The notes beneath the pieces were generated by a model. That model searched no databases. It was not told where the DNA came from and saw only the letters and a list, made by a program, of their open reading frames with translations. Positions 8,701-57,400 of a stretch of DNA of 64,000 bases are shown piece by piece. Each line of letters begins with the position of its first letter. Position 1 is the first letter of the stretch. The position numbers were made by a program, and so were the translations under genes. The DNA is from Bispira polyomma. Taxonomy: Eukaryota. Location: NCBI GenBank assembly GCA_965649765.1, contig OZ287748.1, forward strand, positions 67,084,001 to 67,148,000, in the 5' to 3' direction.

Positions 8701-11700
8701 TATTTGTGTGACTGAACTTGTGTAGACATATTCTACAATATTTAACTTTAGTTACAACACCAACATGGCCGAAAAAATTATCACTGAAAAAAAGAAAAAC
8801 TTAACGCATTTCAATGAACAGTTACCGAGAACTTGGAGGCATGCAATCTAGTGTTTTATTATGTAATTATAGTTTAGTATGAAAGAGGCATCATATTGTA
8901 ATGATCGATTATCACTAAAAAGTGGCCGAAGTAACGTCCACTGATGTACCTCCAATGAAGCTGTGTGAGTACTGCTGTAAGTTCGGAATTTACTTTCAGA
9001 AATGGTCATTTAACATGTGGGAAAGCAGCGACGTTGTATGGTGTCCCCAAAACAACAGTCTGGCTCCACGTACAGAAGTGGAACAAGCTAGGCGTACAGC
9101 CAGGCTTAATAAAATTGGGGGGAATTTACAGCCTGACTGCTGAAGAAGAAACCAGTCTCGCAGAATACATGAGGTGACTTTCACTTAATTTATAAATAAC
9201 ATTATTCAATTGTTGGGCTGCCTCATAAGGCAATTTAGAGTACAATATGCGAGAACTACAAACAGGGCTAGGTGTATTTCTATATATTGTGTCCAAATGT
9301 GGAATTCTTTAGATATAAATTGAGGAAAATGTAACTCGTTATACAAATTTTAAAAAATTCTTAAAGGTAAACTCATTAATGAGTATTAGATATTTGTCTT
9401 ATTCTTTTGTGATGTATTGATAAGTTTTTTAGTCTGGTTATGTGTATTTATAATTACTATTAACTTTGTATTACATAAGCTAGAAGTAATTAATTTTGGG
9501 TAGCTATATTTGTATCCCGTTTATTCTCAATCTCAGTAATATTATTTTGTGTATGTATGATAATTTTATGAATGGCCATGTTAATATTATAACAACAGAT
9601 ACAAACAAAATTGTGTAAGTATTTTAGCAACTTCATCTGTCCTTGTAAAAATAATTCAATGTTGCTTTATTTCAGTGTTTTATTTTGATAGTTAAATTTA
9701 CACACAGTAATCACCAAAGTGGATATGGACAAAGGCGCTAATTCAGCATTCATTCAAGAAAACAGGTTTGAATTAAAACATGATTATATATATTGTTTGT
9801 ACAGTGAGATATCATAGTAGTTTGTATAAGTTATCAGTATGTGTTTAAATGAAATGGACCCCTTCTAACTTTTGCATTATGTACATAATCTTGATCAGTA
9901 TTCACAGGGAGAACTGTCAATATAAAGTATTACAACCATATTCAGTAGAAACTCCATTTTCCGAACATGCTGGGAGTGCAAGGTTTCGTTCAGATAAGGT
10001 TTGTAAAATAGAAGAGACATTTCTGTATTAAACAATAGCAAAACATAAATTTGATAGAGTAAAATGGTGTCTAAATTGAATTGTGATAACAGAAGTTCGG
10101 ATAATAGAGGTTGTACTGTATATGTGGAACAATAATTAAAATTATTTTGTCAGTATTATTATTGTGAATTTTAATAGTGCTTTATTGATGCTAGGTATCT
10201 TCTTAAGTGCAACAGCAGAATCATTGATGTAATCGCAAAATCTGTGGACATAGCAAAGCCGTAAGGAAGGAAGTAGGAGCGCGCACAAGGGAAGCTAAAG
10301 TGGGTAGGCAAGGTTAAAAAGATAGGGTTTTAATTCTATGTTCTTTGTTCAAAGGTATGTATCCTCCAAGTATTACATTTGTGCTTTAGATGGTGCGAAA
10401 ATGTTTCAATACCCTTTATGTACGAGCTACTGAAGGTATTTGCCTATGAGATTCTAGCAATACGTGGAACAGGTAAAAAGGTACATTTTACAACTTTCAA
10501 TAATGTACTCATATATCCATATTGTGTTAATTATCAGGTATATACTTAATTAGCTGAATTTATGAGCAGTCATATTACACCTAATTTTTTGAAATATTGC
10601 TACACTACTGCCCTGGTTCGTCCGAGCTATAGTATGTATGTAAATTATCATAATGTAGTAAACACAAACTCTTTCTTTTTTGTAATTTATCAAACAACTT
10701 TCAATAATGTACTCGTACAGTCCTATTGTGTTTGGGAATGTTCGTGGGGTAATGTTAATCTGCAATTTTATTAATAATTAAATTACTAATTTATTTTATT
10801 TATGTGATTTTCAATTGTCTCAAACATGGACTTACTGCTTTGCAAAGAGGCACAACTTCTCTGCCAGAAAGCCAAGGCACATTCCGTGTGATAGAGAATG
10901 GGCCTATTCTGACCCAGACAATGTTGTCCATTATTTCAAGTTGCTTGAGCAGCAAATGAAGAAATTGAACCTTTTCGCCAAACCACATTGTGTGTGGAAC
11001 GTTGATGAGAAGGGCTGGTCGAAGGAACAGGCACTGCGGCAGCCTGTTCTCTGCACTATTGGACAGCACCAAGTTAGTTGCAGTTATAGTATTAATATGA
11101 CAATATAAGACTGCACTAAATTGCAGAAGACATCTAAAGTTTATGCAATGTAGTATAAAGTAGACATTAAAATTGTATGAAAACCTATAGGTCTATGCCT
11201 ATACTGTTTAGGATTTGCGTGAAAGTCAATCACAAGAAAAAAAACAAAACATGTATTACTGTTGATGAAAAGGAATGGTACAATGATCAAAGTTTGCAGC
11301 GGCCTGTTCTTTGTACGGTTAGACATCACCAAGCTAGTGATAGTTTCCGAAAATGTCATTGTTCTGCAAGTAATGCATTAACTAAATATCATGTGAAATA
11401 TGTAATTTCATTGATTTGCAAAAGACAGAGAATGAAATATGCAATAATTTGTTGAATAGAAAATTTAAACTTGATACAGCCATTTTTTTTAGGTAAGCAC
11501 CATGTATGTGTATGTATGTGCATATAATTTCAATTTAAAAGAGGTTCCTGTAATGTCACTTGAGTGTTTAACATTTAAGCAAAGTATATGAAATATTAAA
11601 ATAAATGTCTTATTTTTTAGGCAAAAACAAGACAGATCTTCATCAACGAGCACATTACGACAGTACACTGTATCAGTGAAAGTGGTGCAGTAATACCACC

Positions 11701-14700
11701 ATACATCATCTTCAGCAAAAGATTACCTAGTGACATTGTCGTCGCAGATTTGCCCGACGCGTGGAACTTTGGTTGTTCCGAGAGTGGCTTCTCGAATAAA
11801 GAGCTGTTTTCCCTTTGGTTTAAGTAAGAGAATATTTTTAGTTATATATGTTAAATACTCACCATAAAATTAAACATATGCATTATATGGCTTAATAACA
11901 GCAATAATTTTTATGTAATATTATATTTAATAAATATATTTAGGTATAATTTATGTTGTTCAGTCATTTGAGGGAGTAACATTAGATCATATATAATACA
12001 AAGTAAATGTCATTGGGATAACGCTTTACATATAATGTCTGTTTCACAAAAGTAAATCTGCATGTAAAATTTAAGGTAACATTAATACATAAAAACTCAT
12101 TTAAAAATATAATGTGTGTTATATTACATCTATTATTGTGTCATTTAAAAAGATATTTATTTGAAAACAATTGAACCCTTTTAATTGAAAACCAAACAAC
12201 CTGGTAAGGAAATATGCAGTCTGATGAAGAGTTTTTCTCTAAAGGGGTTCAGTGCTCTATTTGACAACTTTGGCAAATATTTCTACCGAACATCAGAAGA
12301 GAGAGGCCTCAATTGCTGATTTATGATGCAGCATCTTGCCACATATCGTTAGAAATAGTGCAGGTCGCCATAAAGGAGAACATATCGATTATTACACTGC
12401 CAGGCAAATCAACTGCCTTTTTACAGCCAGTTGACCAGATCCTGGCAAACCTTATGTCAACATTAACTGACTAGGCCTTTAACCTATCTTTTATGTAGAC
12501 TGACTTCCTAGTTAGACCAGGAAATTTTGCCCCAGTTCTCAAACAAGCCCTCCAAAAATCGTGGACAAAGGCGCTAATTCAGCATTCATTCAAGAAAACA
12601 GGTTTGAATTAAAACATGATTATATATATTGTTTGTACAGTGAGATATCATAGTAGTTTGTATAAGTTATCAGTATGTGTTTAAATGAAATGGACCCCTT
12701 CTAACTTTTGCATTATGTACATAATCTTGATCAGTATTCACAGGGAGAACTGTAAATATAAAGTATTACAACCATATTCAGTAGAAACTCCATTTTCCGA
12801 ACATGCTGGGAGTGCAAGGTTTCGTTCAGATAAGGTTTGTAAAATAGAAGAGACATTTCTGTATTAAACAATAGCAAAACATAACTTTGATAGAGTAAAA
12901 TGGTGTCTAAATTGAATTGTGATAACAGAAGTTCGGATAATAGAGGTTGTACTGTATATGTGGAACAATAATTAAAATTATTTTGTCAGTATTATTATTG
13001 TGAATTTTAATAGTGCTTTATTGATGCTAGGTATCTTCTTAAGTGCAACAGCAGAATCATTGATGTAATCGCAAAATCTGTGGACATAGCAAAGCCGTAA
13101 GGAAGGAAGTAGGAGCGCGCACAAGGGAAGCTAAAGTGGGTAGGCAAGGTTAAAAAGATAGGGTTTTAATTCTATGTTCTTTGTTCAAAGGTATGTATCC
13201 TCCAAGTTTACTGGAGATCAGTAAAAGTCCTCAATTAACGAAGGAATGCAGGGAAAAACTGCATGCCCTTTGTACACAGGAAGATGACTGTAGTTCACCT
13301 CAACATGTAGAACCAGAGGACAACAGTAATTCCAACATAGAAAGCACTCACACTGATCAGCTGCAGGATGAAATTTGTGCATGTGGGAAAATAATTGATG
13401 ACCCCTGTCTGGACTGTATACACAGATACAAGGTTTATCTTTATATAACAGATTAAATAAAACAAATTAATGAACTGTACACAAATTTTAAATTAGCTTG
13501 AGTGTATAATTACTTTGGACAGTCAGTTTTTACATAGTGGCACTTGGCTGTTACAATATTTCTATTTAAGAGTTTAATGGTTCATTTATGTTTAATTCAT
13601 CTGGCCTGTACGCCAGTATAACATTAGAAAATGTAATTTATTAATTGTCCTAAATATGTGTTGTAAGTTATACATTACATTACGTATGTGATTAAACTAA
13701 GCAAATGTTATTTTTTAATACTTTGGTTTAGAAACTACACGATCCGCTATATAAAGCAGGGATCATTACTGAAGGGCTGTCAGACTTGGATGCCACAGGA
13801 AAGAAAAATCCTGGCCACAGTCCTTTATAATAAGCTAAGAGTCATAATTGACCCCAATGGGTCATGGTGGCTGACCCCAGGTATTATATCATTTTTGACC
13901 TTGATGGGTCATTGCAGTTAGGTGCCTTAATCGGCTGATACTTTAAATGTGGTATTTACTGATGTGTGATGTACTTGAAATGAGGAAGTCAGATGCAGGT
14001 TTGGGAGTTTATTTTAAAAGCCTTCTATTTACAGCTGTACAGAATTTTAAAAGTTACATTTTAAAACATGCCAAGGTCAAAAAAGCTTAAATAGAGGGGG
14101 GGATGATGGCAGCGAAAGTAGAAGGAATAATGGATGCTGCATGTGATGTTGATTCTAAGTAGGCCCAAACCGCATCTGACTTCCAACATCCATGTTTTTG
14201 AATGTCTTGAAGTTTTATGTTCTGATTGAACGCTAGGGAGGCTCCTGATCGACGGAAGCAGTGAAAAGAATGACCTTGTAATGGAATATTTAAAAAAGAA
14301 AGGATTTGTCTAAGTACTCCTCTGAGTTTTGTGTCCGTTATGCATTTACCACTTTATTGTGGATCAGGTAATAAAGGAAATACTGAAGGTAACTTGTATG
14401 ATCTAAACAGGGATGAAACTGCTTCCACCGGACAGAGCCAAGGGTTTTGAAGTTTTGGTAGTTGTATGATGTTAGGTGATGTTCTGTTTTGATTAGTTTT
14501 TGACCATTTAAGAATGAGATGAATGCCAGGAGGAGCAAAAATGATGTCTGATCTGGTAAGGTGTCTGGTGGGGTCAAAAGGTTGACCAGATGAGGGGGTG
14601 AGGTTAGATATTCTTTAAAACCCGAAGTAGGCTATGAGGAAAGCAGCCCTGTATAGCTCAGGGAAGTCCAGTTGAGAACATGCCTTAGATATGTTCTGTA

Positions 14701-17700
14701 ATTGCTGAAGGTCAAATATACCTTTGACCTTAGGTGTGAAAGGTGTTGTGATTTCAAGAGATCTAGTGTATAGTGAGATCCTGGCATCATAAAGATCAGC
14801 GTGCTGTATGTTTAGCAGTTTGCAATTATGTCTAATTGCTGATAGATAATTGTTTATGGATTTAGGAGAGATGTTTGAGTGATGTAGAAATTCTAAACAA
14901 GATACAATGGTGCTGAAGCTGAAAACTTCAGTGATTTGGAAGTATGTCACAAACGAGAGATATAGTCTAAACTGTCCGTCATACATCTTCTTTGTCCTGG
15001 GTCTGTGGCTGTCTGTCATTCTCTGTTCTGCTTTTAGTAGTAACGGTCTAACAGAAGGTGAATTACCTACAATTAGAAGGTATTGTCCATTAAAAACATG
15101 TCGAGTGTAATCTCATGGTCTTTAAAATTTCTTAGTATTATTTCTTTACTAAGTTCATTGTTATGTCCTATGTCGTACCACCTAGATAGTGTATCTGCAA
15201 GGACATTGTCCTTGCCCCTTATGTGGTTAATGTCAAGTTCAATGTTAAGTGTTGCGCATATAAGCCATAAATTTCTGATGCATAAAGCGAGGTAGCTATC
15301 TCTTGTTTTTGACGACTGCACGACAGAAACCACTGCTGAATTATCCGACTTTACTTTAACCTTTTTGTCTCGCAGTTCTGTTCCCCATAATTTTAATCCT
15401 ATTAACACACCCAACATTTCGAAGTGTACGATAGATAAATCGCTTGTAATAAATGTGGGTATAGGAGTTTTAAACACATTAGTGTTATATGCACCCCCTA
15501 TTCCAGTAAGGCAAGCGTCTACGTATATCGTTGCTTCGTCTTCTCTATTATTGCTACTATATTTAGCTGTGCCATTAAATTGATGAAGGAATGTCAAAAA
15601 CCAATTGAGGTCTTTTCGGAAGTCGCTTGTGAGAGTGATCCATTTGCTACTTGTCGAATCACGTAATAGTGACAACATGCGGTTCATAAATACTCGAGAG
15701 GGTTTAATAACCCTGTGTACGTATAGGAGCTTTCCTAAAAGTGATTGGTATTTGTTTTTTCTCACTCGCTTTAAAGTTGTAAACTCTGCACAAGTTTCTA
15801 TTATTGTTTTCATCTTTTCGTCGTCTATACTAAGAGTTTTGTTACCGATGTCAATTGTGATGCCCATACATGTCACCTTTTTACTGGGGGCCACGAGTTT
15901 GTTTCTATTTATGGGAAGTCCTAGATCATCGAGTACTTGCTGCAAAGTGTTATAGGCTAAGGTAGCCTTATCTTCACTTTCGCAAATGATAAAACACCGA
16001 TGTAGTTGTACACACAAAAGCCTTTTTGTTTTAAAATATGAGTGACTGTGTCAGAAACCTTCATAAATATAGAAGTGCCTGTGTGAGGCCGAATGTTAAA
16101 CTAAGATCGATGTAATATTTGTTATCCCAAAAATAACCCAGTTTTAGGCAATCCCATGGGTCAACTCGAATATTTCTAAACGCGTTTTTTATGTCTACCT
16201 TTGCTAATGTTGCCTTGTCACCTAGACTGAGTAGTGTTGTCGTAATTTGGTCTATTGTTGGTAGTTTCAATGTGAAATCTATGTCGTCATATTTGTTCTT
16301 TACAGTCCAGTCATTGACAGAGGAGCCCTCAGGGTGTGAAAGATTTAAAATTAACCTTCTCTGGTTATTATCTTTTGGGCGGGTTAAAAGGGGAGAACAA
16401 TGAAACTCAGTGTCGATTGGTTCTTCAATGGGGCCAATAATTGTACCCTTACTTGTTTCCTCTGTGAAATATTTATCAATTTTTGTTGGGTATATAACAG
16501 CTGAATGATGGTTTTTAATCAATTTAGTATTTAGTCTACTTCTATCATATAGGGATATTGGCAACCAAAATTCGATGTAATCTAATATGGACTTATCTTC
16601 ATGATCTCTTAAGTAGTCTTTCCAACTATCCACATTAAGGTTAGACTTAACTGGGATTCTAGCCATCTTATAGTTGGGTAATCCTGTCGACTTAATAATG
16701 TCAGTCACTTGTATTAGTTTGTCGTATGAATTAATTTCTACAGGTTCCCTTGTAGGACCAACAAATTGTTCATACTTATTGTTATGCCCTATAAAACCAA
16801 ATGTCTTTTTTCTATCTGGTTTTCATGTCGAGTGTCTGTGTCATTGTTGTCGTCCTGGTTCAAGGTCAGTAAACTAACAATGTCTTGATGATGTGTAGCT
16901 CGTGTTGTGTGATTGTTTGTTTTCTCTAATTGAGGGCCACTTTTGAGTAACGTGTCATTCTGTTGTTTTAACAATTGCGAGTTGTTGTTTTGTTGTGTGT
17001 GTTTTGTGTGTATTTTATTTGTGATTGTATTCTGTGTCAAAGCCATACTCTTGTTATCTTGTTTACAGATCTCATCAATTATGTTGATGTAGTAATTAGC
17101 ATGGCTTACTTTGGTTTGTTTGTGTACTCTGGTCTTAATTTGGTTTCATGCTTTTGTATTTGTATGATTTTTTGCGTATGGTGGTTGAGTGTGTATATTG
17201 TACAGGCCATATTTGTGATATGGTCTGTGAAGTTTTATTCCACCAGACGTTTTCACTGTCTGTGATCTGTCTATATACCCCAGATATAGAGGGTTCTTTT
17301 GCACAACTTATATAAAATAATTCACTGGAACCATTCATAATACAGTCTGATCTAACATATATGTCTACATTATAATACAACATATTATCTATAGTGTTAG
17401 TACATGCAGGTAGTTGGTTAGACATTTGGTCAGACACTTTATATACACACAAATCATTACACCTCGGTTTGTTATTAATTGCTGTGTTAAGCTGTCTATT
17501 TTTTTTGTCTATAATCTACCTCTATGTCCCTTCTCTGGGAACAATGCACATTCTCAAACTTATCTACTTCTACTATATTATCATTGTTCTCAACGTCTGT
17601 CCCTAACTTTTCACTGTTCACCACGTGTTCCATTATTATATTCACATTACTACTATGTTCTTCACTATCGTACACTTGGAAAGGTATGTTTGGACTGGTC

Positions 17701-20700
17701 ATCATATCACTTTTAAATACACTCTCATTGTTCGTCCCTGCATTGAAACTATTATTAGACATAATGTACTCATATGGTGTTTCAAAATTAACATTATGTT
17801 TGCCTATATTCACACTAATATCAAGACTGGTTGGAGCAGTGGGTGCTGTCGGCAGCTCGTGGTCCTATTGAGGGGTTGTAGTAGGTGTTGGTTTTCCATG
17901 TAACTTGTAACACTGACTTTCGGGATGGGGATTTGCTCTTTTGTTCAACTTGTAACAGTGTGCGCATATATGACGGTATGTCATGGAGCCATTCTCGTGA
18001 TCAGCCTTATGTTGACATGTGTTCTTCTGGAAGTGTTTACACGGGGACTCGTTTTTGTTATTATCGGAATTGGTGGTGGTAGAATGAGAGATGAGAGCTT
18101 GGGAGTATGAGAGACGATTCATGTTCCATCTCGCTTTGTCATCCCAGGTTAACTGACCCTCCTCGATGTCATGCATATTGTGGGCGTACACGCCCTTGGC
18201 TACTTGCCATGATATGTTGCTCGCGTCTCTTAATGTATCCCCCAGCTGTTGTAGCATTGCTCGAGATGTTATAGGGTTTTGTGTTTCTAGAATGTTGCAA
18301 ATTTGTCCCGCGGCGAACTGTGAAACAGTTAAATCATCATAGGGGACTCGTTTTTTTGTGGATCCCGGTCAGGCATCCCTCATTAGGCCAACGGAATGTG
18401 GAATCTGAGGAACATATCTCGGAAACGTTATAATGGCCGGATTCCTTTTTGGTGTGCAGCTTACCCTGTAGTTGGTCTCCTGTTGCCCAGGCCTCATACT
18501 GAGCAAGTCGTCGGTTCACTTCTGTCTGTATAATGGAAGAGTGCCTTAATACATCAGCGGTGGGTAGGATTAGATTGCCTGCAACGTCTCGTGATGTGTT
18601 GTTCTGGGGGGTCGCGTGTGAGAGACCCTGTGTGGGGAGGTTATAGGGGTAAGACACATCCCCTGGAAATGTGGTGGGCTGCTGGATGCCCTGCAGAAAA
18701 TTATGTGTTGTTGACGTCGTACGTCTTGGAGCTGGAGTTGGTTTTGGACGCTGTGTTTCTGTCGCTTGTCTGTGACCGAACTGAGGGTTTTGTAGAGTAA
18801 AGGGGGTGTTGTGATGCTCAACACTTGGTGGCTTATTATTGGCAGTCTTTATTTCGGACACGTCCTGTTCTAGTTTAGAAACTGTTTGAGTAACGAGTCC
18901 ATCATGGTTTGTTGTTGTTTAAAGAAATCATGATAAATGTCGTTATTACTCACACTAGTCGTTGAGTCGGAAGGTAGATATTCTGCTCCTTCTATTATAG
19001 ATTCACTGTCTGTATCTTGGTTTTCTTCAATGTCTGTATTGATGGTCATATCCTGTAGTTGGCGTGTACACCTGTTACCCACTGGATGAGAGTGAGAAGT
19101 TAAACATCTAGAACATGATACTCCTGGTTGTGTTTTTTCTTTCCCCTTCCCATGTTAGCAATTTACCACACTATTATATCACAGTACAGAAATAGTAACT
19201 ATAACAGGATAAAAACTCTTATGTAAAAACTAAAACTTGTAAAACTTGATTGTGTAAAACGTAAATGCTTTTTTAAAATCCGATATGGCTTCCAATAGAA
19301 GAAAATTATATATGTTTACTGCTTGGTTTCAAGCTTAAAAGTGAACACACAAAGAACAGGCAGCAAAAGCCTCCAGTAAACAACTTACTGATACATGATT
19401 TTGATTGGTGTTTACATAAATAAATAAGCAGGTAACCAATCCATACAGTAAGCTACAGAAAATAAGAATACAGTAATGTCTTAATTATAAGGACTGAAGG
19501 GCCATGCTAATAAATTCGCAGTGACGTCTAAAGTCATCTTTTGAAGGCGAAACACATCACACATCAGAAAAATAGTACCATTTTTATATTACATCTGAGG
19601 TATGACAAATTTAAACGCTGTCTTAAAAGGAAAGTAGAACGGAATATGCATTATACTGATGCATTACACATTATTCATGGGCAAGTAATTGTCTTCAATG
19701 TAACAAGTAACATCAATTTTAATTTGACATACAGTTAACATATACCTGTACGGAGCTGTGTATGCCAGATTACTTTAGATTCCTTTAGGATCATGTACAC
19801 ATATTTACATTAATTGCTTTTTTTCTGACAGGCTTGTACGTTATGTTATTACAGTGCCTGATGTTGCTCAGGATTTAAAAGAAAGAGCTAAGAAGAAGGA
19901 AGAAAGACAAAGATGGTGGAGATTGAAAAGAAAAAAGTGGCCAAACTGAATGCCCAGCAAAATGAAAACCAGAATGGTAAATACGGTCATACCCATTTAA
20001 GTAGAGCTCTGATAAGTGGAAATACCTATTAAGTAGAGTTTATTGTGAAGTGGCATTGCTATATTTTTTGTTTAAATTTACACTGGTAAAAACAACACAT
20101 TCGTAAGGCCCCCTCAGATTCGACCTTACAGAGTGTCGCTGTGAGTACAATAAGTACAACTCTGTTAAGTTTATTTCCTTATAAATGTAGAGAATACTCT
20201 ATGGTTTCCAAAGGTCTTTTCTGATGATATCTAAGAATGTTGCTTGGAAAACCTTCTTTAATTTGACTGGACATGCTTTACTTCTATGTACAACATCTTA
20301 AGTGTAGCATAATCTGACAGTTTTATTAATATTGCATATTTTAGATGAAGAAGTTACCTTGACAGGCTTGACTGACCAGGAACAGACAGTATCCACAGAA
20401 ATGACTGTCACTGATAAGAAGCAGTATGATAATCTTGGTAACAATTATATCATTTATCAATAATGTAATACAAACATGAAGCTTATTATTGTAATATTTA
20501 AGAAATAAGTTGTTTTATGCATATACTGGTGTTTGACATAAAGGTGTTCATTGAGTAACTTACAGCTGAACCCTGTTAATTAGAACTCTGTGAAGTCAAA
20601 TTTACTTTTATGTGAAGTAAAATCAGTATTTTCACTGAGTCATTCTCAATTAAAATCTACCCCGTTTTGTGGAATAAATACTGCACTTGAACCCCTTCAG

Positions 20701-23700
20701 GTAGAACTATGTTAAGTAAAGTATCTTTTATGCCGAGAGAAGTCTGCAGTCTTACAAATGCCCTATATTTTGTAATCTAACCTGTTAAGTGGAAATCCTG
20801 CTTAAGAAGATGTCTTCTGATCCCTTGATGTTTGACATAAAGGTGTTCAACTTGATTACATATTTGTACCTCATACATTTATATAAAGTGCTAAATTACA
20901 AATATAAGTGGTATTTTACAGATCTTCCTGATATACAGCCAGTGAAAAGGAAAAAAAGAGGAAACCATCGAAGTTCATGCGGTATAATGAAATATTAAAT
21001 ATTTTTCAAAACAGTCAATTCATGAATTTTATAATAGTGAATAAGTCCTACAATTATTGGTGATTTAAGTTTGCAAGTGCTACACCTTATTAATGCGATG
21101 CAATACATGTATTAACAATTTTATTTACATTTACGATACAATTTTATTTACGTTTACAATAATTGAGTATCATTTCAGAAAATGTATTCTTGATTTTATG
21201 TAATGCATTTCAGATAGAGTGACAAATGAAATATATAACTGCCTTTATTGATGTAAATAATATTTATATAGTTATATAAATCCACACATATTTTTACTTT
21301 TTTTCTTTATATTTAGGTAAACCACTGAAGAAAGCCAAAAAGAAAACATTTACTCCTCCATTTCTTGATCCACATAGAAAAAAACCTCAGTAATATGTTT
21401 TTTTAAAACTTTAAAATGTACCAGACTTATATTGTACTGTTTATCTACGTTCGTCATATAAGTTAAACAACTTCTGTATGTTCCTGTATCTCTCATATGG
21501 CAAATTAAACTTTACCCCTTTTAAGTAGAATTTCTGTTCAGTAGAAAACATTTGGTGGTTCCTTCAGATTTGACTTGTTTTTTCATTAAAATATAATTGA
21601 TTGTTTTGTCAAAATTTTTATAAATAATAACACTTCCTATACTGTATTAATTTGTTTATTTTTGTACTTCACAATTGACGAGATGATAACTTTATTATCA
21701 GAACTACAGAATCCGACAACAGAGGACAGTAAAGAATCATTGCCAAGCACATCAAAGCATGTAATGATCCAGCAAGGTACTTACCTTCAGATCTTTAGTA
21801 TATGAATATAATTACATTATATTTTGCAACATTTAAAAGGAACTTTTCGTTTTGGAAGAAATTTAAAACTTATATTCTTATGACAAGGATAATTATGAAT
21901 AAGTTTAATTTTTAGTTGTTAAACTTTATTTGTAAACTTTAATAAATACCAAATTTTACAGCAGTTTCTCAATTCAATTATTTTTTTGTGGATTTCCTTT
22001 AAAAATTGATTTCAGAATGTTATTCCCAAATGGTCATTATATGTAAATAGATTGGCCTTTCATTTCAGTAAAAAACAAAAGGGTGTCCTCCAGAAAATCC
22101 ACCAAGTTGAATTATACAGCCTTAGACAATGGCGAGACAGAGAACATAGTTCTGGTGGTTTGTCCTACATGCCAGCTAATACAGAGGAGGATGAACTATT
22201 AAACATCCTTTGGTATGAGTGTGACTTTTGCCCACGGTGGTGGCACAGACATTGCTTGCCAGGACCACTACAAACAGAAGCTGACCTGTCAATTATCGAC
22301 CAGGTCAGCAAATTCAGATGCCCTGCGTGTCCTGCGCAAGCTATTTGTGCTAAGTGCTTTGCATGTTTATCTAACCTGGAAGCGGCCCAATGTACTCTTT
22401 GCCTTGCACAATATCATTTTCAATGTCTTCCAGAACAATACCAAATTGAGTATAGTATTTGTTTACAATATAGAAGCAAGTGCTACTGCGGAAAATGCTA
22501 TGAAGAATAAATACTGTAATATCTGTAATAAAGGCCCCCAGGGCTTTGCATTTTTTAAAAACAGGGGCTACTATTAAAGAAAACAATGTTAATATCTGGT
22601 GGCGTAACATAATATTAAGAAATCATATTAATATATATAAAACATGTAAAAAGCCTCCTGTAATATCTGAATGTAGACCCATGAAAGCTGTATTTTCATA
22701 CAATTATCTACTACATACAATTCACTATTTCAGCATTTTCAACACAGATATCTGATGACATTTTAGTGTAGCACCTTCTGAAATATTGTATTACTTTGTA
22801 ATTTAAATATAGAAAGTGGGTCTTTATTACAGGGAATATGGTATTTATCTTGACCACTTGCTAGATAAAACTGTTGTTAATTTCTCTTATTAAAAATGTT
22901 ACTCAGATTCAAAAAATTATTTGTAAAAGCTCTTTCGATGGTACATTTGTATTCGTTTATATTTACATTTCTACTTCTATGGTATTGACAGCGCTAATTA
23001 ACCATTTCTTGACTGTAATACTCAAATACATCATTTCCAGTCATTCTAATGACTGAAGAGAAAAAGTTTGAGGATGACCATTTATAAAAGTCTCCAAGGA
23101 TCTTCAGCCTGTCACTTATTCTTCAGTGGTCACATCTATGTGGCATTAGCTAGATAGAAGGAGCTACATAGTTAGGGATACTTGGAAACTTTGACCTATT
23201 TGTCTGCGTTCATGCCTACGGGCCATTTATTTATTTGGATAAAGAAATATATCTAGTTATTATTTATACCATTTAACCTGTAATTATTTGGAGTAAATTT
23301 TTTAGTGTGTTATTTCTATGTATATTCAACAGTAATATATTGAAACGTGGCAAAAAGTTACTATGGCTCTCCAGTACGTTTATCCGGTAGCATGACTGAA
23401 CACAGTTTCTGAACACGGTTTCGCCGAAGAAGCTCATCAGACGTGTTACACCTGCTTAGTTCGGGGTTAGTTGTAGGCTAACTGAGTGGAAATTTCCCCG
23501 TGAGTAGGGAAAACTGTTCATTGTAAAATAGTTTTTGTATACAGTATGGGATGGTTTATCCAAGTTCCACTCGTGTCTCATGATACCACGGTGGTGTTGA
23601 CCAATGGTGTCCTTATTGTTTTTGAAAGTGATGTTGTAAAAGTGACCTTGAAATCTGTTCATTAGTCTTCTTTTGGGTTGATTAACATACTGTGATTTGC

Positions 23701-26700
23701 AAGTTTTACAAGTGATACAATATATTAAATTTCCGCTTATATTCAATAGTAAGGTAACAAATACAGAGGGGGGACAGCGATTTGTGGTGAACAGCGTTTT
23801 GCCATAAATGTCAATATTACACCTAATCACTGTATAAAATTCATTTTAAAGGAATTATTTCCTTATTATAATATCCATATAACATACACAGGTGTACTAC
23901 ACAAATATCGAAAGTATTGTCTGCCCAAATAACTTTTGAATAAATTTAAAGTAACAACACAGCTAAATAAACAGTGGTACTGCTCAAAATGTGAGGTTGA
24001 TAATTAGACTGTTCTTCTGATGAGTTATTGGACTGAATTGCTGAATTTTTTCTATTTCTCATATTTTGCATCATAAAGATAAACTATTTCATATTATCAT
24101 TATTATTGTTAATCAAGCTTACAAGTAATATTTTAATGCAAATATTTATCAGTGCTTGAAAATGGCGAAATGCTGTCCACTTTGTAACCCAGTCCCTTTG
24201 GTTAATAAATTGTGGTTAAAATTCAGCAGAAAGACCTTCATGTAACTGGGTACGAGTCTGATTTGCATGCAATAGAACAACCTTCACAAATTACTTGTGA
24301 TTTGCCTTAACATTTCTTTCTTTTGCTCACATTTATCGTATGTTGAAATCCATTTTAATAAAATGAAAACTCTGTTTGTTACAAATTATTTATTGTTTTT
24401 CATGTTGTTATCTACATTCATATGTAATCTATTAAACGCTCTTGTTCAAGAATAATGTACAGATATAATCATTGTTACCTATAATATTTAACATTGACTG
24501 TTTAAATTATTTTTTTTGTAACCGATTATTAAATTCTCTAGGTAATAAATAAGTATTGTTCTAGTCATTTTATTGGTGTAGTTTAATGTGTAATATTCTA
24601 ATTGCTTGTCATCAGAACATTAATTTCTTTGGATGAAGTTTAATATATGTAGTCATTATTCATACCATTTAACCTGTAATATTTATATTATTTATCATAT
24701 AATTTCTCTACATGAATTTGTTACTTTTCAAACGTAAATAAATGTTTCCAAATATACTTTTCTTATTTCTTTCATTGTTTATATAAATTTGACCAATGAA
24801 TCATCACCATCCAGATAAATCATACACTTTTGGATAAAGTAAGCTAATCAGTCGACTAAAGCATAACATCCATGAAGTGGATATTGAGTCGTGAGCCCAG
24901 TTGATCTGAATGGCTATTTTATATTGCCTTGAAGGTAATGGAAAAGTTTTGAAATGTAGAAATATCGCCAAAATAATACAAAACTGTTCTGCATGAGTAC
25001 ATTATGCACACAGGTAGATTCTATGTTCCTTACATCTAATATGACCTCATATAGTACATTTTCGGTGTAGCTATTACTTCATGTTTACTATAATTTAATA
25101 ATGTTATGACTAGCTTAATCTTATAAGAAAACTTTCCCATTACCTTCAGATCAACTAAAATTACTTTTTGATCATTACATGTAATTAAAAGTTAAATACA
25201 AAAACAAATCATCAAAATTAAACAATTAAAAGTCTATTGCATGCTAAATATAGCCTTACAGCAAGCTAAATTTCTTAATATTACAGTATGCCTCGTTTTG
25301 AAAACTAGCTTGGTATTGATCCATTGTGTACTGAAAACAACAATGTTCCATATATGGAAAGGGCGACCCCCAAAGCCTTCACTCATGATCAACAGATGAT
25401 CTGTTTGTTGTTTTGCTTGGACAAGGTGTCCCAGTATGCAAGTACCGTTCAACTCGAAAAATTTTGTGGTGCATAAACAATTTATGTATCATCATAGTTT
25501 ACTACAGTTTGTAAATTTATTTTTAAAAAGTGTGCATTTTATGGATAATACTCTCTTCTTCAGAACAGTACCAAAAAGTTTAGTATTACGCAAATAAATA
25601 GTTAGTTCTTGGCGGGTTTTCTTCATTTATCGTTCAACTCGGCCACCACGGGTGTACTTTAAATAATTGTAATTGTACTAAGACTTTTATCGCGCTTAAT
25701 CAAAGGGGACTCTAAGGCACACCAGCACAAAAGACAGTAATCCAATTTCCAAAATCAAGGGATAGAAAAGGTCAGCCTCGAAAGAGTCCCCTAATAATGA
25801 TTTAATATACATTTAGGTTTACTGAGTAAAATTAATTCCAATTAAAAAATTTGTACTTATTAAATATTCATTAGCAGAGATACCATTACAATACTTAATG
25901 ATAAAGATTAGGACCATTTTTCAGCATATGTGCAATGCTTAGTGTTCATTAACATTTTAATTAAAAACTACTTTTAAATTTATTTGGCCTACAATTCTAT
26001 TCAGTTAAAGTATACCTCTAGAATAAATTATATATTTGTGTAGAGAAATAAAAGAAGCCATCTTACCTTATAAAAGATGGGCCAAGTGCTAGCTCAGTTT
26101 TATGAGTCTGTAGTGCTTCTTTCAGATCAGCAACTGCAGACACTAATTTGCCCTTCACTTCGACAAAAGCTATTTGTAGTTCATCCAAATCACCAAATAA
26201 GCGGTTGAAATAGTCCTCAATGGATTTCTTTGCCAGCTTCCTCCCTTCATTTTCCAAGAAAGTGATTGGTCTATTTCCAACTAATCGCTTCACTTGTGCG
26301 AATGTGAGTAGGAAAGAGACAAAATCAGAATCTTCCACACTGGGTAAGGGTTTCCTGAAAAGGTGTAATTGTTTGATTGGGTTCCCATCGATGGTATAAC
26401 CCATATACTCAGCAAGTGCAAGGAAGTCCTTTACCATGATGTCATAGTTATCACGAAGAGATTCTTCTATGCTCTTCAACTGGGCCCGTGTTGATACAAT
26501 GGTTTCTTGTTCAAAGCGGTTACTGTATGCAGAAATCAGATCATTTAAGTTACTTAAAGAAGTAGTGTTGGAGCTTCCCTCAAGCAAGAGTTCATTGGCA
26601 AGATCCAGTTTGCTAATTTTATCGTCTATATACATACCATGTATTAGGTTCACTCTACTTTCTATGTCATCCAGAGCTTTTACATCAAGTGAATCTGTTT

Positions 26701-48400: not shown

Positions 48401-51400
48401 AGAACCTTACTTGTGTGGTGTTTCTGTGAGTCATATATGTAAGTCGTGATGTCATATACCCCATATCTTTGTAGAGCAGCAAGCCTAGTAAACAAAAAAC
48501 CACAACAAATGTCTCATATATTTTTTATCAAAGTAAAACACATTCAAGTGCATCCAGATAGGTGTTTTTGTATGGTATTGTAGTTTAATACCAACAACTC
48601 CCTGTGTTCTGGGACTCAAAGCAATAATTTACCTTTTCCTGATTGCACATGGACAACCAACCAACCAGCAAAAGTAACTGCCATTCCACTAACTGAAGAT
48701 AGCTTCAGGATTGCCATTTATCAATGTTTCCAATGTTCTTTATAGCCCAGTCACACCTACACATGATAAAGTCCCGTAACGTAGCATAACAATAAAATCT
48801 GAAAATGTGGTTGTTTGTATCAATGTGACGTCATTTCCATGAAGGTGCAGTCGATTGTGACGTTGGTGACGATGTTGATGACGTTTTGTGACAATTTTAG
48901 TACTTTTACACACGGACCCGGGAGTAAAAAACAGACTTTACTGGTATGATATCACTGGCTACTACTACATAGATTTACTGTATGCTACTTACGGCTGCGT
49001 TATGGTGTGTTTTGCTATCGTTTACGACGAATATAGACAAGTGGAGACGATCTCATTACTTACTGCTACATTATGGTAGTTATACAGATGAGTGGAGACA
49101 TCCTCGAGAAATGGAGAGCTCTTTCACGATTATTTCGCAATAATCATGGCAACAGACCAAAAGAGACGTTACCGGAAGGATATCATCCATTAACCAACGT
49201 CACAAACGCACCAGGGATCCTCACTTTTGCATTACCTCCTACTACGTTTGTACTAGGTTTAAAAACAACTGAAAACGTCACCCAAATGTATCTCCAGCAC
49301 ATGTAGGTTTGACTGGGCTATTAGCCTGCCCCTGAGGGTGGAATTCAAAGCAGGTGGCAGATGACTACAATTTCAAGTGGTTATCCTAGCCACTATATAT
49401 CTGCATGTGCCTGGGCTGAAATCAAATCCAGGTCCACTGCATACCCACTAGGCAACAGTCGTCTTGCAACAAACTAGATCCTGGAAAATAAACTTGCTTC
49501 ATCTGGTATGCAACAAGAACAAATACCAGATAAAGAATGATATATGAGAGATAATTCTAGATAGGTTATGTTACACTTTACACAGCAGGACCCTTTAGGG
49601 GCCTGATACTTCAGTCCACTTACAAACCTTTTAACTTTCATCACAACCTTAATTTCGGTTATACCAACAATATATGTAGCTATTTACTGGGCTACTAGCC
49701 AATCACAGCCCACACACTTGTTGTTTAGGCTTCACTTTCCAAATCACCATTTTGAATCTACATTCAAGCTATAGAATTCAAAGCAACAACAAGTGAAAAA
49801 TATTTTATGAAATAAATGAATTGTATTTAGGCGATTTTATTATTTTAACTTGGTTTTTATGACACATTGTGTGCTACATATTGTGAATCAATCGACATGG
49901 GTCGTACTAAGAAAACGCCCACACACAGCTCAGTTAAAAAATCGACCAAGAAACCACTTACAGCAAGAAAGACAAAGGAAAGGCAAGTAGTTGATTCTCT
50001 CGTCTTGGACCTCGACGGTCAATTATCACAGGTAGCGGGCCCCTCTAGTACTGACAATTCTTTTCAACAGATAAATAGCGATGCCTCGCCAATGATGGCG
50101 ACTCGGGGGCCCCTACTTAGGCCGGGTTCTGACACAACCAGCAGCCAGAATTCTGACCAAATGCTTGCCATTCTCATGAGGCTTGAAGCTTCTAACACCG
50201 ACTTAGCTGGTCGTTTGCAGAAAGTAGAACAACAGGCATCGACTAACGCATCCATGTTACCTACCCCATCTCTCCTCGGGACGGGTCACACACCGGCCAT
50301 CGGGCAGATGGGAACTACAGCTTCACTTAACGTGCAGGGTACATCTGCATACAACCAACCTGCTACAGGCCACCACGGTCAGATCGCTGCCGGATCACTA
50401 CCACAGACGGGTTATCCTCCTCAACAACCAGCACAGGGCAACGCTGCGTTCGCGCTTCACACTCAGTCAGGCAATATTGCATCAGCTTATATGCAGAACG
50501 CTAGACCAGACATCCCCGTAGCAACACACACGGGCTACGCGGGTCACGATTACCAACGAGAAGGGATCGTACCGAATCTAGGTGCTTTAAGAACCTTACC
50601 TCACGTCCAGGCGGAAGTTACCAGACAACTTGCTCAGTATTCAGCACTTGCACAGCGAGATATAACACAAGGTAAGGCATCTCTTAAGCATAAATCGGGA
50701 CGGTTCAATAACACAGACGTCACTTCCATGGATCCCAGGCTAAGGTGGCCTAACGAAGGGTGGGTAGGGGGTTCTTCAAAGAAGAAGCCAACGTTCAATG
50801 AACTCACACTGCCGCAGTGGGCTGCAGGGCAGCTCGCTAACGCGCTATTAGTACCTAACCCTGCTGAAATGAAGGACATGGTAAGACAAATAGTATCAGC
50901 ACTCAGAGATGCTTCATCTCTTCCGTGGCACGTTGTCAGGACAGCCTGGGCTCTCAGTATGCACGAGGTTGAGGAGGGCCGGCTGTCCTGGCAGAACGAC
51001 ACCCAATGGTCACTGAATAGGCTCAGTGCTTCCCAGGTAGCCATGGTCAACAGTGCAAACGTAGGTATTAGCAACAGCAATTCTAGCAACGATTCTAAAC
51101 TTATTTGTAAGTTATATAACAATGATAAATGTACCCACAAGTCAGATCACGACAAATACAAACACATCTGTTGGCATTGTAGCCGAACCCTGGGAAAGGA
51201 CTCCAACCACCCCGAGTTCAAGTGTTACAGATCCAACAGTAAACAGCTGGACACTCAGGTAAACCAAGGAAAGCAAAGCTAGGTAATTCTTCAACAACCA
51301 GGAGAACGAACTATAGTTAAAGATAATTGCAAAGTAGAAATAAGAGATGAGTATGATAGTAACATTAAAATTGTAAAAGGTGAGCTTAAATCTAATGATG

Positions 51401-54400
51401 TTGATAATATACTGTGTTATGGTAATGAGAACAATGAACATATTAATGGAAATGAGCACATAATGCAAAACAATGTGAACAAAATGTACTCTAGTAATTT
51501 CACAAATGTTTCAAATGAGGGCATGATGACGGAGTACAACTGTATATCAGAGCATTATGACTTATTTTTGTATGACAGTGTGCAATCCAGATGCAGTGGT
51601 AGTAAAATGCAGTACTGCAACAGCGAGTTAGCTGGTTATGTTAATTCCCAATACTATGATGGTAATTTTAAAGAAAGAGAAAGTAAAAATCAGATAGAAG
51701 TAACAGTCACTGTCACCAATTGGCAACATTTTTGTAAAAAATGGTCCGTTTGGGCTCCAATAATATTCTTAAACTGTAGCTGCAATGAAATTGAAGGGTT
51801 TTACTACATATACCATCATAGTGGGGACAATGAAATGAAATACATGCCTGTGTTTAATATACCTCAAGGAGATCTGCAGGTCATACACAGATATGTCACA
51901 GCCATATATTATGATCTCACAGATAGATGCAAAAAATTACTAAGTAAGGTTAATCAGTGTAATGCTGAGGATATTGAACAGGCAGCCAATGTTTTCGACA
52001 ATTTCAGTAAAGATGAAAAGTGTTACAAACAGTATGGCTGCGACTATTCTGAATATATAACGAATATTATTGATATTATGTGTGATGATAACTGGAAAGT
52101 AGATGACAATGCAAGCAGTGCAGACAAATTCAATGTAAATACTGCAGCTGGACACGAAACTCCAAGGAGTGTGCCCTGCGATGAAATATACACATGTCCG
52201 ATTCGCGATTTCTTCTTCAAAACTGATGGGGTCAATGCTGGCACCAGTAAGAACATTAAGGAAAATTGTCATATCGCCCAATCAGGAAAATCAGTGGGAT
52301 TTATTCCATTATCTTCCACAAAATTTCAGTTTATTGGTCCTGATCAGGAGCCAGTAAAAGTTGATTCAGTCGGTAAAATGGAAAAAATTGCTGCTATAGT
52401 TAGAGGCACGAATCTCCCTAATTATAGGCAGGCTAGAATTCCTTTAATTTCGGGATTACACCACACAGCGTGGGAGGAAATGCTTACTGACTATTCGGAT
52501 CAGCTATTAATACAATATATAAAATTCGGGTTTCCTCTATCTCTCACAGAACCAGGGAAACTAAATAATTCAAAAACTGTCAACCATTACTCTGCTTTGC
52601 AATTTACGAAAGAAGTCGGGCAATATCTTGAGAAAGAAAAGTCAATGGGGGCGATGTTAGGCCCAGTTAAGCAAGTGAACTCACCACACTATCACTGCTC
52701 ACCCCTTTTAACCAGACCCAAAGACACAGACAAACGTAGAGTCATTTTAAATCTTTCTTATCCACTGGGGCAGTCACTAAATGAGAATGTAGACAAAGCA
52801 CTGTTCGATGGGGTCAAATTCATATTAAAATTTCCTACTATTGACGACATCACAGAGGCAATTCGGAATACTCATGATCCAGTGCTGTTCAAGATCGACG
52901 TGGCCCGAGCGTTCCGTAACTTGAGAGTTGATCCAGCTGACGCACTGAAACTAGGCATACAATTTGCTGAAGGGCAGTACATTGACTCTGCGGTCGCGTT
53001 CGGGTGGATACACGGAAGCGCGGCTTTTCAGCGTTGTTCCGATGCCATAGCAGCCTATATGTCAGAACGCGGGTTTACAGTATTTTGCTACATCGATGAC
53101 TACATATGTGTATGTACTAGAAATAAGGCTGACAAGGGTTTCCGTATTTTGAAAGATTTATTGCTTAGGCTAGGTTTCCCAATTAACGATGATAAGCTTA
53201 CACCTCCCACAACTCGCCTTACATGCCTAGGCATAGACTTTGATATTACTGCCGGCACTATTAGCATACAGGAAGAAAAACTTATAAGCATAATTAAAAT
53301 GGTAAATGACACCTCTCAAAAATTGCACATTTCACTATTAGCATACAGGAAGAAAAACTTATAAGCATAATTAAAATGGTAAATGACACCTCTCAAAAAT
53401 TGCACATTTCACGTACTCAGTTTCAATCTTTATTAGGAAAATTATTATATGTTCACAAGTGCGTGAAACCTGCCAGAACTTTCATAAATAGATTACTTCA
53501 AGGTTTCAGAAGTGATCACAATGCTAAAAAATTCAAAATTTCTTCTGAAATGCGCCATGACATCGACTGGTTTCAAAAATTCTTACCTCAATATAACGGG
53601 ATATCATACATTAACCATAGGGACATTTCCCATATGGACGAGTTACATCTGGACGCCTGCCTATCAGGTTTAGGAGGTGTCTGGAACAAAGAAGTGTACT
53701 CTACACCATATTATAATGTTTATCAAAGAGAGCTTACCATAGTGCATATAGAGATGCTGAACATTGTCCTGGCTTTAAAAATTTGGGGTGAAAAATGGGC
53801 TCACAGTAGACTAATAATTCACTGTGACAACATGGCCGTCGTACTGGTTGTTGAAAGTCAGAAGACGAAGGACGAATTTCTAGCATTATGCTTAAGGAAC
53901 ATTTGGCTACTTATAGCCACATATGACATTAATATTAGCATTAACCACATTCCAGGCAAGAAAAACATAATAGCAGATGCCCTTTCTAGAATTTATTGCA
54001 AAACTCCTCCCAGCAGGGACATGTTATATAATTTATACAACAATTATGTTTGGAATCCAGTACTCATACAACATTTTGACCTAGATTTTTTAATATAATT
54101 ACAGGTGCTACTGCCATTACTCAGAAACTCATCACTTCAGCATGTGGAAGGATTGACACAGCACTTAGACCAAAGACTTCTTCTGCTTACGAAAATCAAT
54201 TTAAAACTTTCCTGGCTTTTAATGAATTTGCAGGCATTTCAAATACTTCGGTTCATTCAGTACTGGCCTTTTTGGAATATTTGACACAAAATAACATTTC
54301 CCTGCTGCGGTGTCAAACTACCTTTCTGCTCTAAAATTCATGGCTAGAAAGTTCAATTGGGATTTAGCTCCATTAAATCACAATTCTGTTGCATTATTCG

Positions 54401-57400
54401 TCAGAAGTATTACAATTAATTCACTATTTCGTCCCAGACACAAGGGATTGTTTGATATTGCACAGCTAGCACAGATTTCCATAGCATGTTCTATTCTAGA
54501 TGACCCAATATTATACAGATCCATATTTATGGTGGCCTATTTTGCTTTTTTGAGATTATCCAATATTGACCCTCACTCAAGGGCCACATTTGATAGATCT
54601 AGGCATTTTCTCAGACAGGACTTAATTTTTGGACATCCTGGGGCTCACATCATCCTAAAATGGGCAAAAAATTTGCAAAATAGGACAGATACACATATAA
54701 TACAAATTCCAAAACTACAAAATAAGACTATTTGTCCAGTATTGGCATTACAAACCTTACTAGCTTCCAGGCCCCTTCCTCCTGCTGCACCACTTTTTGC
54801 AGTAGCTAGTACACCACATCACACCATAGTACAAACACATGTAAGGACAGCTCTGGAAAAAGTCTTGACACACATTGGAATACAATATTCTTCACATGGA
54901 TTCCATACTTTCAGACGTTCTGGAGCTTCATTTGCATTTAATCATAATGTATCCCTACAGAATATAATGGCCCACGGGCTTTGGAGATCATCTTCAGTTT
55001 GGGCTTACCTCCAAAAAACCTCCCAGGCAGCATCAGTCGTGCCTCATACCTTTGCCTCTTCCATTCCTTCTTCTCTCTAGTTGGGCTTGGGGCTTAAAAT
55101 TTTCTGAATTTTAACCATTTTTACACTTGTTTCTCTGTACATATACCATTAACATGTATATATAAAATAAAGCTCAAACTGAACCGTTTTATTTACTTAC
55201 ACAAACATCACACTTGACTTAAAATCCATTACTTAACATCTTGAACCCAACTTACACCTTATAACTTAAGTGGACTGTACACAGCAGGACCCTTTAGGGG
55301 CCTGATACTTCAGTCCACTTACAAACCTTTTAACTTTCATCACAACCTTAATTTCGGTTATACCAACAATATATGTAGCTATTTACTGGGCTACTAGCCA
55401 ATCACAGCCCACACACTTGTTGTTTAGGCTTCACTTTCCAAATCACCATTTTGAATCTACATTCAAGCTATAGAATTCAAAGCAACAACAAGTGAAAAAT
55501 ATTTTATGACCCACCTCCTCCCCTATGACCACAGCCTAGTGCTTGACGAATAATCAGCGACTTAAGCTTTATGTTTCTTTAATATCATGTCACGACAAAG
55601 TGAATAGTCCACGTGGAAATACCGGCAAGTCACTACTATATTGGAATTGTAATCCGGTCGTTTCCAACAGGGAACTCGGCAACAGACCGGACGGCGAAGG
55701 TTCGAGCCGGTGGCCATGTGAAGGGGGGTTCCTGTCTCTTATGCCTCCACTGGGTCATATAATGCATCGCCAGGAGGGGGTATGACGGGCAGGATTTCCC
55801 CTTTGCTAGGCGGTTGGTGCCCTAGGCCATCGGTTCTAACGTTAGCCTGAAGCGCATGCCAATGGATGAAATTGAGGAAATTACTTGTGGTATCTTAGTA
55901 AATAATGCTAAATACAGGCATATAAACTGAGAGTTGTTGTAAATATTAAGCAATAATGAGAGAGTTTCTAACAATTAGCTATGTTGAACTTTAGTAATGA
56001 TATAAATGTGGTATATGGACTGTTTATGGCCATTGATGATGTAATTTATGTGTCGATTTATGCAAGATTTATTGTTTTATGTGTAACTTTTAGTATCTAC
56101 ATATTTCACTATATAGCTTGAAAGGTAACAAGAATGATACCAGTTTTAAGTTGTACTCTTACGTATATTGTATAATTATTTAATGGCTAGTCCGCATATT
56201 TTTATGTATTTATTATTGGCTAGTCCTTTACGACTTAAATCTCTGTTAGTCTTTAGTCCTCCTTGATTGGGGCTTAAAATTTTCTGAATTTTAACCATTT
56301 TTACACTTGTTTCTCTGTACATATACCATTAACATGTACATATAAAATAAAGCTCAAACTGAACCGTTTAATTTACTTACACAAACATCACACTTGACTT
56401 AAAATCCATTACTTAACATCTTGAACCCAACTTACACCTTATAACTTAAGTGGACTGTGACATATATCACCAATATCAACACAGCTTTTACATATCCATT
56501 ATGAAAGATCAGAATAAAGTGGGTACATAAACAATAGAAAGCTGACATAGAATCACATATTTAAATCCCAAGTGCTCACTTCTTACTACAATCATAGTAA
56601 AGGTCATTAGGAAATGGCACTAAGTGGTTAAATAGTATTTTGCAAACGGTATATGGTAAAGTGGTTAATTTTTAGTTTGAAGTTCATGTGTCCTGTTATA
56701 GTTCAACCATTGTGTTTTTATTGATTTTTAAAAGCCAGTCAAAGCAAACGCCTTAGGTAGGATTACTTGTGTAACTTGATTTATTTTGTGTGTGTTTTCA
56801 TTTGATTCTTGTTATCACTATATATCTGTGTCAAGCAGAGTATAAATAGCTCATACTAAAAAATGTAATTACTATTTTATATTGATCTATTGCTTGAGGT
56901 GGCACTTTATTTAATGACAAATGTACTAATTGTAGAAGGTTTTATTTACCGTCAAACAAATGGGTTGTCAACATAGACGTTTAGCAAGCCGTTGATGGAT
57001 TGAATGACTTATTTTTTTAGTTTACTTGTGAACCCTATCAGTGGTGTAGAAGCTATATCTAATGCCCTGTTCCTATGCATCGGACTGCATTCGGCCATAG
57101 TTATTTCCTCTGCTCTTTATATATTTTTTGTATTGTCACAAACATAACTGTATGCAATGTACCAACATAAATATATATACGAAATTGAGTTTAATATACA
57201 TCGTCCTGATAAGGCAAAATATATACATTTAATGTGCAGTATAATAAAAAATATCAAGATCTGAAAAAGGAACAACATATTTTAGACTACACTTGTTGAC
57301 AAGAAGCGGCTATTCCTTTCAAGTACCATTTGTTGAGTATTTCTAATAGAATTATAGTAATGACTTAAAGGGATATTTAACTATGATGTTATATTCAATT

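Follow-up and report, generated by a model that had tools for sequence, protein, structure and literature searches.

A predicted Gag-to-recombinase splice in a Ngaro-type retrotransposon of Bispira polyomma and its distant relatives

The 64,000-nucleotide (nt) stretch of Bispira polyomma DNA analysed here (the window; contig OZ287748.1 of assembly GCA_965649765.1, positions 67,084,001 to 67,148,000, forward strand) contains a tyrosine-recombinase (YR) retrotransposon of Ngaro type, element 2 (49580-56458, + strand), whose recombinase we predict to be made by splicing, together with a degraded relative, element 1, on the opposite strand. Element 2 opens with terminal repeat A1 (49580..49810; 49575-49810 matches 55274-55509 at 100%), its left end having been fixed by comparison with the B1/A2 junction. 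A gag open reading frame (ORF) of 461 amino acids (aa) with a Cys/His cluster near its C-terminus (49897..51282) ends in a TAG stop, and pol, encoding reverse transcriptase (RT) and RNase H (51283..54098), continues in the same frame with this one stop between them. The tyrosine-recombinase exon of about 325 codons (54105..55080) is followed by repeat B1 (55087..55278), the adjoining repeat A2 (55279..55509) and, at the right end, terminal repeat B2 (56267..56458), all on the + strand. The arrangement A1-B1A2-B2 is one of split direct repeats (A 236 nt, 100% identical; B 192 nt, 99%). Each B repeat contains an AATAAA; the one in B1 (55166) could end mRNAs, and genomic RNA must run through to that in B2 (56346), which offers a second possible control point. 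The 757-nt spacer between A2 and B2 (55510-56266) holds no ORF of at least 150 codons; it is covered by high-depth contigs and is therefore part of element 2.

According to the available portions of published descriptions, Ngaro elements (order DIRS) carry gag, RT/RNase H and YR on the same strand, have split direct repeats and lack a methyltransferase (PMC3783388, PMC4157794, PMC13465315); we took our definitions from these and assigned element 2 by layout, repeats and domains. Like them, it has all three coding parts on one strand with YR last, and split direct repeats, for which element 2 alone was examined. Pfam matches were to RVT_1 (E 2e-11), RVT_3 (E 9e-6) and Phage_integrase (E 0.0017; E 2e-10 in the metagenomic relative L001). 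There was no Dam match, and pol ends about 40 residues past an ADxLSR motif in 11 of 12 elements of the comparison set described below, so that, as in Ngaro, no methyltransferase follows RNase H. Neither an aspartic protease nor a DDE integrase gave a Pfam match in elements 1 and 2 or in the relatives L001, L004 and L009, and the spacer ahead of RT belongs to no Pfam family. Element 2 Gag likewise matched no Pfam family, and was assigned by position and by homology to the first ORF of L001, L004 and L009 (24-27% identity). Lacking a methyltransferase domain and inverted repeats, the element is not PAT-like or DIRS1-like; nor is it VIPER/TATE, in which the ORF order is given as gag, YR, RT/RNase H (PMC6681497), because its YR lies downstream of RNase H. 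DIRS1-like elements are described, in the part of the source available, as inserting without target-site duplication at a site resembling the repeat junction (PMC3266345). The ends of element 2 (one copy; ^ marks a boundary or cut here and below) fit such an insertion: ACTTT^ACAC at the left, ACTGT^ACAC at B1/A2 and ACTGT^GACA at the right.

The window copy of element 2 is broken twice, which the initial annotation had not recorded: a 77-nt tandem duplication in RT (53256..53409) breaks the RT frame, and a frameshift lies near 54290-54300 in YR. In three of three sequencing runs, contigs skip one unit of the duplication and do not match the window at either break. Matching contigs numbered 866-1049 per run, of them 123-223 at 99% identity or above, a depth that is not a copy number. 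That there are many contigs, and that they differ from the window at the breaks, indicates that the family is multi-copy and that the breaks are not common to all copies.

Two sites in element 2 would allow the recombinase to be joined to Gag. A predicted donor, AAG^GTAAGG (50669..50677, cut 50671/50672; CAAG^GTAAGG in context), stands in a linker of Gag 775 nt from the ATG at 49897, after the first base of a gag codon (phase 1), and is the single phase-1 RG^GTAA/GTGAG/GTATG site of this gag; the Cys/His cluster lies 3' of it. A predicted acceptor, a T-rich tract leading to TTACAG^GT (54080..54106, cut 54104/54105; in full TAATTACAG^GT), meets the YR frame in phase 1, is placed fourth among 422 AGs by leave-one-out scoring, and leaves 6 nt between the end of the pol stop and the first exon base. 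The initial annotation had held that the YR frame has no ATG at its 5' end, that the two sites are in frame when joined, and that their joining removes the Gag zinc finger with RT and RNase H. All three claims were borne out: the first YR Met comes at 54340, about 78 codons into the exon (none in the first 77), donor and acceptor are each in phase 1, and the predicted GT..AG intron (50672..54104, 3433 nt) contains the 3' half of gag and the entire pol. The same annotation had placed a homologous pair in element 1 (14087..19153, - strand), which retains gag, pol and YR with several breaks, is 42% identical to element 2 over RT and RNase H, and shares with it a single 66-nt match at the DNA level. 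This also holds, with a predicted donor AGG^GTAAGC (18459..18467, cut 18465/18464; full context CAGG^GTAAGC) and a predicted acceptor TTGTAG^GT (15065..15090, cut 15067/15066) 6 nt past the pol stop, 3398 nt apart and both in phase 1.

RGGTAA occurs 0.7 times and TTNYAGR 1.5 times per kb per strand in the window, so that one donor/acceptor pair could be chance; what argues for more than chance is that position, phase and consensus are retained across relatives. The predicted bounds of a sodium-channel exon of the host, also in the window, are similar in style (TTGTAG^G and AAG^GTAAGA). The reads of the three sequencing runs are probably DNA, given their even cover over element and spacer; a 50671-54105 joint was absent among the 15 of 56 joints listed for these runs of one study, which says nothing about RNA.

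Metagenome contigs were scanned with a 13-sequence YR alignment, giving 13 loci from 403 pattern matches, and these with the two window elements form a comparison set of 15. Median YR identity is 36% over the 105 pairs; L005 and L008 are 98% identical, and L003-L005 and L006/L007 66-76%, so the 15 elements amount to about ten lineages. Elements 1 and 2 are sisters in a tree of the set (support 91/90). No related loci were found in viral and prokaryote sequence collections. In L003 a second gag of the same family starts just past the first element (1722-1991), which suggests tandem copies.

In each of the 15 elements, a YAG^R acceptor stands 50-77 nt upstream of a conserved RPxT motif and cuts the YR frame in phase 1. 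The consensus is TTNYAG^R: positions -6 and -5 are both T in 14 of 15, and -3 is a pyrimidine and +1 a purine in every one. It stays while the residues encoded around it vary. A frame-blind score, in four variants, chose a phase-1 site alone in 14, 10, 14 and 12 of the 15, and 12 of the acceptors rank 1-4 among all AGs of their locus when left out of the training set. Every element has an in-frame stop ahead of the acceptor and none from there to the RPxT motif, and the first in-frame Met falls past exon codon 25 in 12/15. Protein homologs tell the same story: among the best 150 of 3249 HMMER hits, 35 could be anchored and 16 had at least 22 residues before the motif, and the signature that a phase-1 acceptor would leave in translation appears at -18 to -22 in 12 of these 16 independent proteins; the background rate is 12.5% of windows.

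The acceptor also appears to mark the beginning of the protein fold. In a model of the L001 exon (77-row alignment, pLDDT 95), the first helix spans residues 3-17 (pLDDT 91-93), and the model aligns with Cre along nearly the full length (TM 0.74, E 6e-10); the exon profile matches Cre from residue 32 on, at 16-17% identity. With the first helix of a Cre-like fold at residues 3-17, the acceptor would stand at the start of the fold. The predicted exon product thus resembles Cre of phage P1 over almost all of its length, but unlike the free-standing Cre it is predicted to be a Gag fusion. One might suppose instead that YR has an internal promoter of its own, or that ribosomes re-initiate at an AUG or near-cognate codon further downstream, the splice-like sites being by-products of AT-rich sequence. 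The window does have 34.5% G+C, with both motifs common singly, and three elements have an early exon Met (codon 1 in L010, 16 in element 1, 17 in L011). Yet consensus, position and phase are retained in 14-15 of 15 elements while residues vary, starting at a Met would cost the protein its first helix in 12/15 (and some 78 residues in element 2), and the donor would be left unexplained in 5/5 elements; we therefore regard this route as extremely improbable.

The donor is retained as well. In all five elements with gag, a phase-1 RG^GTAA donor lies in the same Gag linker, 18-23 codons past the same helix motif, although the flanking residues differ (Q, E or S before; K or N after). With amino acids fixed and codons drawn from the usage of each element, the joint probability of such donors is 0.0016, and 0-10% of same-length windows elsewhere contain one. 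In a low-confidence model of L001 Gag (mean pLDDT 58), donor codon 139 is the last residue of a helix and a disordered stretch comes next; the model had no clear fold match (best Z 5.6), the linker as a search query gave no matches, and Atlas searches returned unnamed clusters only or nothing usable. A separate Cys/His motif at the start of Gag in L001 (96-200), L004 (305-410) and L009 (150-260), absent in element 2 Gag, would remain in a fusion.

We infer that the host spliceosome uses both sites and pairs this donor with this acceptor. Were the acceptor real but joined to another donor, in a short gag leader or in pol, YR would have a different N-terminus; the gag of L001, L004 and L009 holds equally good consensus matches in other phases and places, and the pairing is itself a deduction. 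The acceptor, however, is in phase 1 in 15/15, and the linker site has no phase-1 competitor of the type RG^GTAA/GTGAG/GTATG in four of five gag ORFs and in L004 a single one, which lies further on (for element 1, the scan covered only the 193-codon open piece of gag downstream of its frameshift), so that we hold another donor to be rather improbable. The comparison across relatives that the initial annotation had called for thus came out in favour of its proposal, a Gag-YR splice alongside a separate RNA for genome, Gag and Pol: the acceptor, the donor and their phase are kept in every element that could show them, and the signature recurs in 12 of the 16 protein homologs.

Translation through the end of pol was also considered. 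In the window's two elements, a -1 ribosomal frameshift there could yield Gag-Pol-YR, replacing splicing or acting beside it. Slippery-like heptamers, which the initial annotation had not reported for element 2, stand in the pol frame inside the -1 overlaps of pol and YR: TTTTTTA in element 2 (54086..54092, + strand; overlap 16 nt), within the pyrimidine tract, and GTTTTTA in element 1 (about 15091-15097, - strand; overlap 37 nt). Moreover, the gene calls P0001 and P0155 carry RT, RNase H and YR within one frame, and fungal Ngaro YR ORFs are reported as in frame or frameshifted in the accessible part of PMC3783388. On the other side, the heptamer is found in 2 of 12 elements only, the window's two; no stimulatory structure lies 3' of the heptamers (z 0.13, 1.66 (element 2), -0.73, 0.56); a U run is expected within a pyrimidine tract; and in both window elements the two splice-site consensus sequences persist, with Pol only 42% identical between them. 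Among the 12 elements with both parts, the pol stop precedes the YR exon by 6-783 nt, and the two frames have no overlap in 8, a 4-nt overlap in 2 and the longer overlaps in the window's two alone, so that no single frameshift or read-through route could serve them all. A frameshift in the window's elements is accordingly, in our view, very improbable. In L005 (477-1259) and L008 (477-1256), the roughly 780 nt from pol stop to YR acceptor hold no long ORF and more than 20 ATGs.

Upstream, gag and pol are in frame across a single stop in 4/4 elements with both intact there (L001, L004, L009 and element 2). Between that stop and the conserved pol start lies a non-conserved, stop-free spacer of 257 codons in L001 (1122-1895), 145 in L004 (1562-2000), 77 in L009 (1317-1550) and 337 in element 2 (51280-52290 of the window); of 5000 shuffled versions of each, 0, 0, 4 and 0, respectively, stayed open. 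The product of these 77-337 codons belongs to no known family. Read-through of the stop is the simplest reading for Pol expression. A plan with one donor and three acceptors was rejected for the family because a phase-1 TTNYAG^R precedes the conserved pol start in only one of six elements (L006) and because the gag-pol spacer is open; no internal gag acceptor was found in the long linker of L004.

Taken together, it is likely that the recombinase of element 2 is made from a spliced RNA as a fusion to the N-terminal part of Gag. In this scheme, unspliced RNA would serve as genome and as mRNA for Gag, with Gag-Pol arising when ribosomes read through the one in-frame stop of gag, while the spliced RNA would join the first 258 gag codons to the YR exon of about 325 codons to give an integrase of some 580 residues. 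The Gag part of the fusion would end at a predicted helix end, ahead of a disordered linker, and the helical C-terminal Gag domain and the Cys/His cluster would be dropped. We speculate that the retained part links the recombinase with the Gag particle or directs it towards targets. There is about an even chance that a broad Ngaro-type clade shares a retrovirus-like programme of Gag, read-through Gag-Pol and an obligatory spliced Gag-recombinase carrying a packaging or targeting domain.

Besides the heptamers, several observations weigh against this scheme. The donor evidence comes from five elements only. One of three control windows inside YR is also biased to phase 1 (12/15 in variant 1, mean score 6.9 vs 8.8), so that phase as a sole argument counts for less than odds of 1 in 3 per element would suggest, and the leave-one-out ranks are weak for L012 (18), L013 (25) and element 1 (45 of 389). 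A branch-point motif shows no enrichment (9/15, P = 0.21). The homolog test is partly circular, the signature having first been noticed in some of the same proteins. L010 has its Met directly behind the acceptor, and L003 and L004 have Mets just ahead of it. Finally, the gag stops share no read-through signal (TGA, TGA, TGA, TAG and TAG), with no unusual structure 3' of them.

An annotated Gag-YR protein was not found. A single-sequence search over 458-2000 aa gave one match among 1448 candidates, an RT-RNase H-YR call; a profile search over 666-2000 aa, a range that leaves out the expected 480-590 aa, gave three matches, none with Gag by inspection; and the best 150 of the 3249 HMMER hits were all of 380 aa or less. 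All ten protein clusters looked up were without names.

Spliced subgenomic RNAs are familiar from retroviruses and long terminal repeat (LTR) retrotransposons (env; foamy-virus pol; Ty1/Copia gag), in which balanced splicing sets the ratio of genome to protein. Those splices yield Env, Pol or Gag alone, unlike the Gag-integrase fusion skipping RT that is predicted here. The closest working analogue is the SD' RNA of murine leukemia virus, in which a gag donor and a 3' acceptor produce P50, in which integrase sequence follows the Gag N-terminus in frame; as the accessible text describes, this RNA is also packaged and reverse transcribed, and P50 is an accessory protein with only the last 116 residues of the DDE integrase (PMC10496198). 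The predicted splice of element 2 similarly joins a mid-gag donor to a 3' acceptor and fuses the Gag N-terminus to an integrase, but here the entire Cre-like recombinase appears to depend on splicing, in an element without envelope.

In the Ngaro descriptions, YR is a separate ORF, in frame or frameshifted, and their available portions mention neither a spliced Gag-YR mRNA nor read-through of a gag stop (PMC3783388, PMC4157794, PMC13465315). The accessible portions of six further sources likewise give no account of a spliced Gag-YR RNA (PMC7192593, PMC9341512, PMC12477816, PMC5890265, PMC3537659 and bioRxiv 10.64898/2026.05.21.726589). How the start-less last ORF of YR retrotransposons is expressed found no answer in the literature, as far as its accessible portions go. 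A full-text literature search, whose coverage leaves out the primary Ngaro papers and Repbase, found no account of such an RNA. Some fungal YR elements may contain introns, and a prior mention is possible.

If our interpretation is correct, the Ngaro integrase would be redefined as a Gag fusion, with a bearing on target choice, particle assembly and recombinase biochemistry; ORF-based annotations would start these recombinases at the wrong place, which would affect biochemical work. Element 2 would also be one more among the few retrotransposons that need unspliced RNA as genome and yet maintain a spliceosomal intron under balanced control. The clade-wide programme, if real, predicts that reverse transcription of the spliced RNA has left short non-autonomous copies. 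It would also explain why deletion of ORF1 in Cafeteria Ngaros is accompanied by a changed insertion site, as reported in the accessible part of PMC8547959.

Elsewhere in the window, the long host exon mentioned above (26063-28285, - strand) begins with a match to amiloride-sensitive sodium channels and includes, at 26955-27220, a coding repeat of 21 nt. A Copia-type gag fragment lies at 5696-6520 (+ strand), and a frame with weak PHD-finger matches at 22010-22510 (+ strand). The frame at 7765-8262 (- strand), which has no Pfam match, resembles the tail of a non-LTR element. Identical 300-nt copies at 9726-10025 and 12562-12861, 2836 nt apart, are possibly LTRs or an assembly duplication.

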